From positions 1 through 64,000 of IMG/VR virus record IMGVR_UViG_3300033145_000192: a stretch of DNA of 64,000 bases. One strand, given 5' to 3'. This DNA comes from a virus. Below are positions 24,125 through 32,425 of the stretch, in pieces (position 1 is the first letter of the stretch; each line of letters begins with the position of its first letter). Below the pieces are notes generated by a model. That model made no database searches and was not told the origin of the DNA. It saw only the letters and a list, made by a program, of their open reading frames with translations. A program made the translations under genes and the position numbers.

Positions 24125-24207
24125 AGGGATATACGCCACGCGGAGTAGAGCGGTCTTGTTTTCCGGCGCAGCAAGATGTGTGGTGGGTTCGACTCCCACT
24201 ATCCCCA
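24125..24207 (+). ncRNA. tRNA-like element with extended anticodon arm
   Basis: Acceptor GGGATA/TATCCC, T arm GTGGG-TTCGACT-CCCAC, 8-bp stem GTCTTGTT/AGCAAGAT with 9-nt loop; weak D arm. Confidence 0.55.
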
Positions 24208-29546: not shown

Positions 29547-30599
29547 ATGGCTACTATTCTCATCATTGGAACTGGAACGATTGGAGAACCTCTTATCGGA
29601 CTCTTTTGCACACATGCGAAAGACTTCGGTATAGATGAAATCCTCTTTCATAAAAGAACGCCGCTCAAAACGGATAGGTCAAAGGTCTTATCCCTTCAAA
29701 AAAGAGGAGCGTTGCTTTGTGTTGATAAGAGCACACGGACTTCCTTTCGTGCTCTTGGGATTGAACCGAAATACACACTCACAGAGGCAATGAATAAGGC
29801 AGATGTAGTTATCGACTGCACTCCATGTGGAAACAAAAATAAGGAGGCGTGGTATAGACATCAAGACTGGACCAAGGGATTTATTGCACAAGGCTCCGAA
29901 AAGGGCTTTGGCAAACCCTATGCTTTTGGAATAAACGATTCGGCGCTCATGCCAGAGATGGACAGGTATATTCAAGTCGTATCGTGCAACACGCATAACC
30001 TAGCAGCGATTATCCAAGTGTTGGCAGCAACTTCTACTGGATACAATGGGATACGAGAAGCGAACTTCCTATGTATCCGTCGTGCTAATGACATATCTCA
30101 AGTCAAGGGCTTTATGCCCAGTCCCACTGTCGGTGGACACAATGATAAGAAGTTTGGAACTCATCACGCTGCCGATGCACACAGACTGCTGTCTACTAAT
30201 GGACATGACGTAAAGATGTTCTCATCTGCACTGAAACTAAACACGCAATACATGCACACAATCTATTTCAACATTGAAATGAAAGACGCATTGGACCTGG
30301 AGTCCATACAAGACCAAATAGATTTGAGCCCTAGAATAGCTTGGACACACAAGAAGTCTGCAAACGAAGTGTTTTCTTTTGGTCGTGACCACGGACATTA
30401 CGGGCGTATACTGAACCAAACAGTATTCTGCCTACCATCACTAAGTGTTGTTGGCAACAAGGTCGTAGGATTTTGTTTCACTCCCCAGGATGGTAACTCA
30501 TTGGTATCGTCCGTAGCTAGTGCGCTGTGGCTACTAGACCCAGATGGCTATAAGAGTAAGCTGAGTGTTCTATACAACTACTTTTTCAACGAAATCTAA
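29547..30599 (+). CDS. Type II (archaeal-like) GAPDH-family dehydrogenase
   Basis: Rossmann IIGTGTIG, DVVIDCTP, AQGSEK, catalytic VVSCNTH, IRRANDISQ. Confidence 0.75.
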   Translation: MATILIIGTGTIGEPLIGLFCTHAKDFGIDEILFHKRTPLKTDRSKVLSLQKRGALLCVDKSTRTSFRALGIEPKYTLTEAMNKADVVIDCTPCGNKNKEAWYRHQDWTKGFIAQGSEKGFGKPYAFGINDSALMPEMDRYIQVVSCNTHNLAAIIQVLAATSTGYNGIREANFLCIRRANDISQVKGFMPSPTVGGHNDKKFGTHHAADAHRLLSTNGHDVKMFSSALKLNTQYMHTIYFNIEMKDALDLESIQDQIDLSPRIAWTHKKSANEVFSFGRDHGHYGRILNQTVFCLPSLSVVGNKVVGFCFTPQDGNSLVSSVASALWLLDPDGYKSKLSVLYNYFFNEI

Positions 30600-30610
30600 C
30601 AGGAATAAAA

Positions 30611-30874
30611 ATGCGAAACTACAAAGACGTATTGGGCGTGCTTGGTAAAAGACATACAGAGGTTTGGTATTCTGTGTGTAGCGGAGGCGATGGAGCACAA
30701 CAGTTAGTTTGGTTTCTGACTGAGGATGAGGCGAAGAAGGGTATGTTCGATGAAGACGATGACATGTGGGTATCATGTGTCGGTCGCACAGAGACATATT
30801 GTGGCTCCAACGTCCATAAGGAAGCCATCGAAAACAGTGAGTCAATTAGAACCACCAACGCACAGTTGGTATAA
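30611..30874 (+). CDS. Hypothetical protein
   Basis: ORF with AGGA RBS. Confidence 0.55.
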   Translation: MRNYKDVLGVLGKRHTEVWYSVCSGGDGAQQLVWFLTEDEAKKGMFDEDDDMWVSCVGRTETYCGSNVHKEAIENSESIRTTNAQLV

Positions 30875-30899
30875 CCATCTTTTTCAAAGGAGTATTGTC

Positions 30900-31176
30900 A
30901 TGACGAGGAGCAGCTTTTAGCAACAAAGAGCTTAGGTCCAAGGAAATTCGTTTCAAGCCATCAACGGCAGAGAATGACCTGAAGACTAAGCGCAAACAAG
31001 TAAAGAAGTTTCTAGCAAAGGGCCACAAGGTCAAAATCACAGTCGTCTTTAGGCGCTGGCAGAAGAAAACAATGCTAGAGATTGCCAAAGAGAAGATGGA
31101 GCAGTTTGCCGCTCTAGGGCGCGTTACTACGCCAGCCAGATGGCAGGGCAACAAACTGACACTAACCATGAATTAA
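30900..31176 (+). CDS. infC: Translation initiation factor IF3 C-terminal domain; ATG frame joined to the main frame by a +1 shift at TTT-TAG-C (or a 1-nt sequence error)
   Basis: KEIRFKPSTAENDLKTKRKQVKKFLAKGHKVKITVVFR matches IF3-C; missing from the ORF track; ATG 30900 has RBS AAAGGAG but stops at TAG 30918-20. Confidence 0.8.
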
Positions 31177-31187
31177 CACATGGTTAA

Positions 31188-31274
31188 GGACGCGGGTCCG
31201 GTTGGTCGAGGAGCATGTCCGGAAAACATGTATAGCGCGGAAGCGTTACAAGGGTTCGAATCCCTTCCCGTCCG
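31188..31274 (+). tRNA. tRNA-Ser (GGA)
   Basis: Class II cloverleaf, G73. Confidence 0.85.
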
Positions 31275-31288
31275 TAATAGGAGGCAGC

Positions 31289-32425
31289 ATGAAAGTAGTA
31301 ATACTTGGCGCAGCAGGAATGCAAGCAAGAGCGATTTATCAGGACCTTCTAGTGCAGGATGACGTTGAGGCAATACATCTCGTTGATTTGTCGTTTCCAC
31401 AACTTACTGCACTATCGAATGAGTTTCCGCACAACGGGAAAATCGTTCAAGTTCATGCAGCAGACCTCAGAAATGTAAGTTCAGTGGCCACAATAATGGG
31501 GTGGTGTGACGTAGCGATTAGCTGTGCGCCATACGACTTCAACTATGCTCTAGCAGTTCAGGCAATCGACAGCAAATGCTCGTTCGTTGACCTGGGTGGC
31601 AACAATGACATAGTTAGGTTGCAACTGGAGTTGAGCCACAAAGCAAGTGAAGCAGGAGTCCTAATCGTTCCTGACTGTGGACTAGCGCCAGGGGTGCCGT
31701 CAATTCTCACGGCGCAAGTTGTGAGAGACTTTGATACCGTTGACACGGTAGAGATTCTGTGCGGCGGATTGCCACAGCCCAAGTATCGTGATGGTTACCT
31801 GGACTACTCGTTGGTCTTTAGCGTGCAAGGATTGATTAACGAGTATACCGAAGACGCAATGACAATCGTTGATGGAAAGAAGGTGCAAATACCTTCACTT
31901 CTAGGAGATGTTGAGCCATTCGGGCACGACAACCTAGAGCTAGAAGCGGCTGTTACATCTGGCGGGATTTCTACATTGCCAGATACATTTGAGAGCGAAA
32001 TAAAGAACTTGGGCTACAAGACGCTCAGGTATCCTGGGCACTGGAATACTTTCAAGTTGCTTAAACAGCTTGGTGTGTTCTCTGTAAGCTCTCTCAGGCC
32101 GATATTTGAGAGACAACTCAAGGCGATACTAGATAAGAAACTGCCGGATATGGTTGTGTTTGCGCTAAGAGCAGACGGTCATACCGATGGAAAATTCTGC
32201 TACAGAGACTTCTACTTTAGGTTTGACCAGCCAAACGATGACACTACGGCAATGGCCGCAGCAACAGGCTGGTCGGCTTCGATTGTGGCCTTGATGATTG
32301 GACGCGGACAGACTATAATTGAGTGTGGAGCGATTCCACAAGAGATTTGTGTGGACCCAGAGCTTTTTATTGAAGAGTATGCTGCAAGGGGAATCAACAT
32401 AGAGGTAACAGACAATGACTCATAG
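31289..32425 (+). CDS. Saccharopine dehydrogenase-like oxidoreductase
   Basis: VILGAAGMQA, ISCAPYDFN, FVDLGG, PDCGLAPG, FS..GLINEY, YKTLRYPGH, MAAATG. Confidence 0.85.
   Translation: MKVVILGAAGMQARAIYQDLLVQDDVEAIHLVDLSFPQLTALSNEFPHNGKIVQVHAADLRNVSSVATIMGWCDVAISCAPYDFNYALAVQAIDSKCSFVDLGGNNDIVRLQLELSHKASEAGVLIVPDCGLAPGVPSILTAQVVRDFDTVDTVEILCGGLPQPKYRDGYLDYSLVFSVQGLINEYTEDAMTIVDGKKVQIPSLLGDVEPFGHDNLELEAAVTSGGISTLPDTFESEIKNLGYKTLRYPGHWNTFKLLKQLGVFSVSSLRPIFERQLKAILDKKLPDMVVFALRADGHTDGKFCYRDFYFRFDQPNDDTTAMAAATGWSASIVALMIGRGQTIIECGAIPQEICVDPELFIEEYAARGINIEVTDNDS

Follow-up and report, generated by a model that had tools for sequence, protein, structure and literature searches.

A phage gene for the C-terminal domain of initiation factor IF3 lies behind a mini-leader and a probable prfB-type +1 frameshift site

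Organization of the IF3-C locus and identity of its product

The virus record analyzed here is complete (177,375 bp, with direct terminal repeats), and the phage genome carries 42 tRNA genes and a tmRNA; the window, that is, the whole stretch of DNA under analysis, comprises its first 64 kb. On the plus strand of the window, a Shine-Dalgarno (SD) sequence (AAAGGAG, 30887..30893; anti-SD duplex of -8.2 kcal/mol) is followed, after a 6-nt spacer, by the ATG of a short leader ORF in the 0 frame (30900..30920), which reads ATG ACG AGG AGC AGC TTT TAG and encodes MTRSSF. Within the leader, an internal SD-like element (GAGGAG, 30905..30910, plus strand; -8.1 kcal/mol) is located 4 nt (CAGC) from the TTT codon, or 3 nt if read as AGGAGc. 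The leader ends in the putative shift site UUU_UAG_C (30915..30921, plus strand), formed by TTT at 30915-17, TAG at 30918-20, and C at 30921.

The +1 frame is closed on its upstream side by a TGA (30901..30903, plus strand) that overlaps the start codon as ATGA. Opened after this TGA, the frame translates as RGAAF-SNKELRSKEIRFKP... and is closed by TAA at 31174-76. The portion lying downstream of the shift (30919..31176, plus strand; 85 codons plus TAA) encodes ...SNKELRSKEIRFKPSTAENDLKTK..., and the IF3_C domain proper, with the order β-α-β-α-β-β, occupies 30937..31173 according to the PF00707 match and the structural model. Reading TTTT in one step would join the leader to the IF3 C-terminal domain (IF3-C) in a 91-aa product, MTRSSF-SNKELRSKEIRF.... 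The first ATG, GTG, or TTG of the IF3 frame appears only at codon 52 (ATG 31072), which is the start of a 34-aa ORF. A first-pass annotation of this DNA had described the ribosome-binding site, the ATG, the TTT TAG C sequence, the TGA at 30901, the internal GAGGAG, and the 91-aa product, and each of these details agreed with the sequence.

Several neighboring features were recorded. An antisense ORF of 107 codons (30846-31169, minus strand) spans the whole IF3-C gene and has no family match; it probably owes its existence to the Lys/Glu-rich sense strand, and a gene caller could annotate it instead of IF3-C. On one side of IF3-C, at 29547-30599, lies a type II GAPDH-like gene with a weak family match (NF003251, E 2e-28, below the cut-off), and on the other, at 31289-32425, a saccharopine-dehydrogenase-family gene (Sacchrp_dh_C, E 2e-28); both sit in the tRNA island. 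The flanking saccharopine-dehydrogenase-family genes raised the idea of a connection to polyamines, which was dropped because no specific family could be assigned. Scans for promoters and terminators around the IF3-C gene gave counts that did not exceed those of shuffled sequences.

The assignment of the product to the C-terminal domain of IF3, already proposed in the first-pass annotation, was borne out by profile and structure comparisons. The window protein matched PF00707 (IF3_C) with 58.2 bits (cut-off 34.8, E 8.2e-16) over profile positions 3-83 of 86, and the domain was recovered with 57.7 bits in the profile scan of the whole genome. Its top NCBIfam match was infC, confined to the C-terminal half: the full-length InfC model (TIGR00168) gave 46.6 bits, below its cut-off of 60, over profile positions 81-161 of 170. 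A family search revealed no IF3_N domain upstream of IF3-C, where the adjacent ORF encodes an unrelated 87-aa protein. The AlphaFold2 model (pLDDT 90.8) contained the elements E-H-E-H-E-E, and its comparison using Foldseek with 1TIG (TM 0.82/0.79, rmsd 1.9) and with the 30S-bound E. coli IF3 9fco_J (TMq 0.86) revealed the same fold. As modeled, the product is a complete stand-alone IF3 C-terminal domain. In E. coli, growth is sustained by the IF3 C-terminal domain alone, and the anti-association activity resides in this domain, while fidelity comes from the N-terminal domain (PMC9723500). For these reasons, an active but less discriminating factor would be expected, and we infer that the phage protein is an anti-association IF3 of relaxed fidelity whose target is the 30S subunit.

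Conservation of the shift site among diverged phage IF3-C genes

Homologues were sought in several collections. In a HMMER search of 1.8 billion representatives, the matches were short calls whose starts lay within the domain, and a profile built from these yielded 17 proteins. When the DNA behind the short calls was examined, including that of the 81-87-aa proteins of ordinary appearance, the called starts proved to be internal GTG, TTG, or ATG codons, and the device was present upstream in each case. Every shifted IF3-C gene had thus been missed or truncated (34-87 aa) by gene callers. Searches by other routes were less productive: no relatives were found among GenBank phages using megablast, a metagenome scan with peptide patterns and a near-length protein search with the window protein both returned nothing, and a pattern scan of 185,579 species genomes gave 38 matches, none of them IF3-C. 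In the first motif-only scan of IMG/VR, 19 of the 21 matches were ordinary in-frame 'FN' codons.

Ten independent IF3-C genes were compared (the window, L001, L030/31, L033/L112, L041/L098, L162, L163-5, L166, L167, and L168), with pairwise identities of 34-68% (median 47%). All ten share an SD sequence (-5.6 to -12.5 kcal/mol), an ATGA start, a leader of 3-6 codons ending in Phe-stop, a UUU codon followed by a stop, and the IF3-C domain in the +1 frame, which is closed by a TGA 2-5 codons upstream of the shift site. For example, L001 from IMG/VR, 53-57% identical, reads ATG AGG AGA AGT TTT TAA C with IF3-C at +1, and L041, found by pattern scan, reads ATG AGA TTT TAA C. The triplet AGC directly precedes UUU in half of the shifted loci (5/10), and at least seven loci (L001, L030, L032, L041, L162, L163, and L166) are closely preceded by a tRNA or tRNA-like T-arm.

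L032 was not counted among the ten. This gene (L032:215-462, on the 525-bp contig ENA ERZ23491063) retains the SD, the sequence ATG AAG GTT GAT TTT TAA C, and the upstream tRNA; its IF3-C frame is +2 relative to the ATG, and it has no strand β1 (KEIRxxP). Decay of the copy, a second recoding event, and an error in a low-coverage assembly are all possible explanations.

Differences between homologues were concentrated at third codon positions (0.66-0.78, versus 0.25-0.41 at second positions), and synonymous sites were near saturation. The former contrast indicates that the +1 frame is under purifying selection at the protein level, and the latter that the conserved 7-nt site is no relic of recent ancestry. 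These values also bear on the idea that the run of four T at the site reflects a homopolymer error in sequencing or assembly, the true sequence being TTT AGC, or that the gene is a decaying pseudogene. A pseudogene would not be expected to keep an intact +1 frame under purifying selection. An error would have to insert the same extra base in ten diverged genes across JGI, ENA, NCBI, and Logan assemblies, and in four release-factor genes as well (see below), always with a stop right after the slippery codon. Identical sites were seen in separate assemblies (L041 and L098; L033 and L112), with L163, L164, and L165 coming from three different runs, and none of the relatives had TTT AGC in frame, the arrangement that, according to the first-pass annotation, would betray such an error. 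We therefore regard this explanation as hardly credible.

The conservation likewise weighs on two readings in which the ribosome enters the IF3 frame by initiation. In the first, translation would start internally, at AUU 30946 or at a near-cognate codon, and the MTRSSF mini-ORF would be a separate regulatory upstream ORF. An AUU start is used by host infC, an Ile codon (ATT, ATC, or ATA) occurs in the KEIR motif of all homologues, and a distant phage gene does begin at this point of the domain: L122:601-846 (IMGVR_UViG_3300037067_001739) encodes a stand-alone IF3 C-domain with a TTG start placed directly on KEIRLRP, behind AGGAG. From this gene it follows that C-domain-only IF3 genes also exist without a frameshift. 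However, ATT 30946 has no SD (the best upstream duplex reaches -3.7 kcal/mol), the relatives often have ATC or ATA instead, and a product begun there would lose half of the β1 strand (model residues 7-12). Conservation of the Ile codon is explained by the place of this residue in that strand. In 7 of the 10 genes, the IF3 frame contains no ATG, GTG, or TTG before β1, and the candidate starts in the remaining three lack an SD (-0.6 to -2.7 kcal/mol). Internal initiation also leaves unexplained why UUU plus a stop and the exact +1 frame are invariant in 10/10 genes while the surrounding codons drift. A start at ATT 30946, which the first-pass annotation had named as a competing possibility, is accordingly improbable.

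In the second reading, ribosomes would terminate at the UAG and restart nearby in the IF3 frame. The mini-ORF overlaps the IF3 frame, as is the case with coupled genes, and reinitiation in E. coli is reported to be affected by IF3 (PMC2268962). Nevertheless, the same seven genes offer no ATG, GTG, or TTG within reach, and the slippery Phe codon is conserved although reinitiation needs none, making this pathway very unlikely.

On these comparative grounds, the gene is very probably expressed by a real programmed +1 ribosomal frameshift on UUU-U that yields the 91-aa IF3-C protein, as the first-pass annotation had suggested by analogy to prfB. Of the conserved TTT-TAG that it had proposed to look for, UUU plus a stop was found in 10/10 genes, and TAG itself in the window only. 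The stop at the shift site was UAA-C in six genes, UGA-G in three, and UAG-C in the window alone. Since the stop identity varies among homologues, the logic of the family is "UUU plus any stop" and not RF1 sensing. UGA followed by G is not the weakest context; together with the varying stops, this makes the RF1-specific and the 'weak stop' readings less convincing for the family. The internal SD-like element was strong in three genes, moderate in two, and weak in five; with a strong stimulator in only 3/10, the element does not define the site of this family, and the mechanism is no simple copy of that of prfB. No shared downstream RNA structure was found: the folds of five sites differed (z -0.2 to -2.1), and a neat 7-bp hairpin was present at the site of L001 alone.

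A second +1 cassette in the release-factor gene of the same phage

The entire 177-kb genome was scanned for an SD-like element followed at 3-5 nt by NTT, a stop, and a long +1 frame. Only two sites had a +1 frame devoid of its own start, and these belong to two shift-dependent genes, IF3-C and a gene for an RF1-type release factor, a result that points beyond chance; the other matches to the motif fell inside ordinary ORFs. The RF1-type gene, located outside the window on the minus strand (G000:C1 ~146723-147416, L025:1441-2134) and identified in a release-factor domain search, encodes the sole class-I release factor of the phage and has an open frame of 222 codons. The beginning, MNVTIEIRAAAGG...AAKEHL, runs up to AAG GAG CAT CTT TAG C, and the remainder is read in +1. 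The product contains VPPTE (PxT) and GGQ and is devoid of domain 1. Among NCBIfam models, prfA scored best (203 bits), ahead of prfB (142) and prfH (84). The device is kept in relatives of this gene (L027, AAGGAG-CAT-CTT-TAG-C; L028, GGAGG-TCA-TTT-TAG-C; L116, GGAGG-TCT-CTT-TAG-C), so that UAG occupies the shift site in 4/4 diverged phage release-factor genes. We found no paper on frameshift-gated phage RF1-type genes in a literature search.

The window IF3-C gene and the phage RF1-type genes (SD-N3-YUU_UAG_C) thus share a genome, a cassette design, and a stop codon, and the release-factor gene of L028 even has the same UUU_UAG_C heptamer. They differ in that the shift occurs 37-41 codons into the RF1-type genes, as opposed to a mini-leader of 3-6 codons for IF3-C, and in that the RF1-type product is itself RF1-like, which would make true autoregulation possible there, unlike in IF3-C. 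The pairing of release-factor and IF3-C genes through UAG is no rule, since the genome of L041 has its release-factor gene at UAG and its IF3-C gene at UAA.

Other ways of decoding the site were considered using the gene content of the phage. A quadruplet-reading tRNA was rejected: the anticodon loops of the two phage tRNA-Phe genes are of the normal 7 nt, and the ARAGORN prediction 'tRNA-??? tccg' (24125-24207), which has a 4-base anticodon and adjoins the tmRNA, showed no cloverleaf and no Rfam support. An ARAGORN tRNA-Ser(GGA) right after IF3-C (31195-31274) is also below the Rfam tRNA threshold and without a cloverleaf; both predictions look like tRNA-like T-arm elements, not tRNAs. The anticodon loop of the second phage tRNA-Phe(GAA) (29254-29326) is CUGAAGA, with G37, and that of the first copy is CUGAAAA, with A37. 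Frame maintenance on UUU is affected by the modification at position 37, and the phage tRNA-Phe could influence the shift. An alternative genetic code was rejected as well, given that all three stops are in use (TAA 96, TGA 81, and TAG 73 of 250 ORFs), no suppressor tRNA was found in the genome, and readthrough of TAG would leave the frame unrestored. Transcriptional slippage was set aside because it requires longer runs than 4-5 T.

Proposed mechanism and relation to known recoding systems

The full explanation that we consider likely is a prfB-type +1 frameshift operating on a gene that does not encode a release factor, behind a mini-leader. Ribosomes would initiate from the SD at ATG 30900 and, after decoding five further codons, pause: the P site would hold peptidyl-tRNA-Phe on UUU 30915-17, and the A site would present UAG-C, a weak stop read only by RF1. 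If RF1 arrives first, the hexapeptide MTRSSF would be released and IF3-C would not be made. Otherwise, tRNA-Phe would slip by one base and re-pair on UUU 30916-18, aided by AGGAG at the spacing known from prfB; AGC would become the new A-site codon and be decoded, and the 91-aa protein would be completed. Shifting would compete with termination, and the output should rise when release-factor activity is limiting, the limiting factor being RF1 in this phage and RF1 plus RF2, or RF2, in its relatives. The conservation of UUU plus a stop thus points to a response to whichever release factors read that stop.

The first-pass annotation had gone further, proposing an RF1 (UAG)-sensing switch. For this phage the proposal stands as plausible: its own RF1-type gene has a matching cassette, and TAG ends ~22-29% of ORFs across the genome (20/93 of those of at least 200 aa and 73/250 of those of at least 60 aa), a high share from which a high demand for RF1 follows. 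For the family it does not hold, the stops being UAA in six genes and UGA in three, and RF1 specificity would be at most a feature of this phage. A meaningful response of the output to RF1 in this phage is, in our estimation, slightly favored. Termination status may also be coupled to initiation and ribosome recycling, as that annotation put forward.

The same frameshift might instead serve as a fixed-ratio attenuator that is no sensor, holding IF3-C at a low, constant level because an excess would be harmful, with the stop acting as a slow A-site codon. The lack of conservation of the stop (UAA, UGA, or UAG) would suit this role, as would the missing SD-like stimulator in half of the family and the lack of an obvious feedback loop, the product not being a release factor. 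On the other hand, the window site copies the design of the phage's own RF1-type gene, with an SD-like element, a 3-nt spacer, and YUU-UAG-C, and whenever a stop occupies the A site, the outcome inevitably depends on release-factor activity, as shown for prfB (PMC12421855). We consider the attenuator a rather unlikely account, with perhaps a minority share of the probability.

Building on the release-factor-responsive frameshift, a 'termination-status regulon' can be envisaged in which the RF1-type factor and the IF3 C-domain are both gated by SD-N3-YUU-UAG-C. Phage mRNAs ending in TAG would titrate RF1, and this would switch on extra RF1 together with a fidelity-relaxed, subunit-splitting half of IF3. 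In a second loop acting on the leader, IF3-type activity could destabilize ribosomes carrying very short peptidyl-tRNAs and so make IF3-C self-limiting. We offer this scheme, its leader loop included, as a speculative one that is more doubtful than the frameshift on which it builds.

With prfB (RF2; SD-N3-CUU_UGA_C), the window gene shares a 0-frame stop after a slippery YUU codon, a main ORF in the +1 frame, and a C after the stop. The registers are also comparable: AGGGGG-UAU-CUU-UGA-C in prfB and AGGAGc-AGC-UUU-UAG-C in the window both place the SD-like element 3 nt upstream of the slippery codon. The differences concern the leader, which has about 25 codons in E. coli prfB and 3-6 in the IF3-C genes, and the SD-like stimulator, which is held essential in prfB and appears dispensable in half of the IF3-C family. 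Moreover, prfB encodes the factor that reads its own stop, whereas IF3-C is an initiation-factor domain, and the autoregulatory logic of prfB is not directly applicable because the product is no release factor. UAG, the stop of the window site, is never seen in prfB, and the IF3-C relatives use UAA or UGA. In a 2025 survey of >12,000 genomes, TAG was never present at the prfB frameshift site and no convincing prfA case was reported, while TTTT slippery sites read by tRNA-Phe were documented in natural prfB genes (PMC12421855).

Eukaryotic antizyme, a polyamine sensor (UCC_UGA_U), likewise combines a regulatory +1 shift at a stop with a product that is not a release factor (PMC1874602). Apart from being eukaryotic, it differs in having no simple P-site re-pairing, a downstream pseudoknot, and a polyamine effector, none of which was seen at IF3-C.

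Host infC is autoregulated through its AUU start codon, which is discriminated by IF3 itself. It resembles the phage gene in that an IF3 gene is controlled translationally at the extreme 5' end of the coding region; however, host control consists of start-codon discrimination, whereas the phage gene has a normal SD and ATG with a frameshift gate, and its ATT 30946 does not qualify as a start.

Huge phages have been reported to carry IF3 and release factors, with no mention of frameshifting (Al-Shayeb 2020, PMC7162821). As in the window, these are phage copies of IF3 in tRNA-rich genomes (PMC7162821), but they are ordinary ORFs, whereas the clade described here is limited to the C-domain and dependent on the frameshift. 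The phage IF3 genes of L002, L120, and L123 are full-length with ATG starts. A 2016 recoding review includes neither IF3 nor infC and refers to the UAG/RF1 counterpart of the early in-frame stop as 'unknown' (PMC5009743), and our full-text literature search returned no description of a phage IF3 made by frameshifting.

In bacteria, prfB is, to our knowledge, essentially the only gene for which a programmed +1 shift at a stop codon has been documented. The clade described here would place a prfB-type device in control of another gene class, a phage initiation-factor fragment, and it brings new properties: UUU combined with any of the three stops, leaders of down to three codons, and often no SD stimulator. 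It thereby provides a natural series of minimal +1 sites that recoding research can dissect. It also exposes a systematic annotation gap, and phage IF3-C genes are under-counted because gene callers truncated or missed every member of the clade. For the biology of these phages, the arrangement suggests that they tie the supply of an initiation factor to the capacity for termination.
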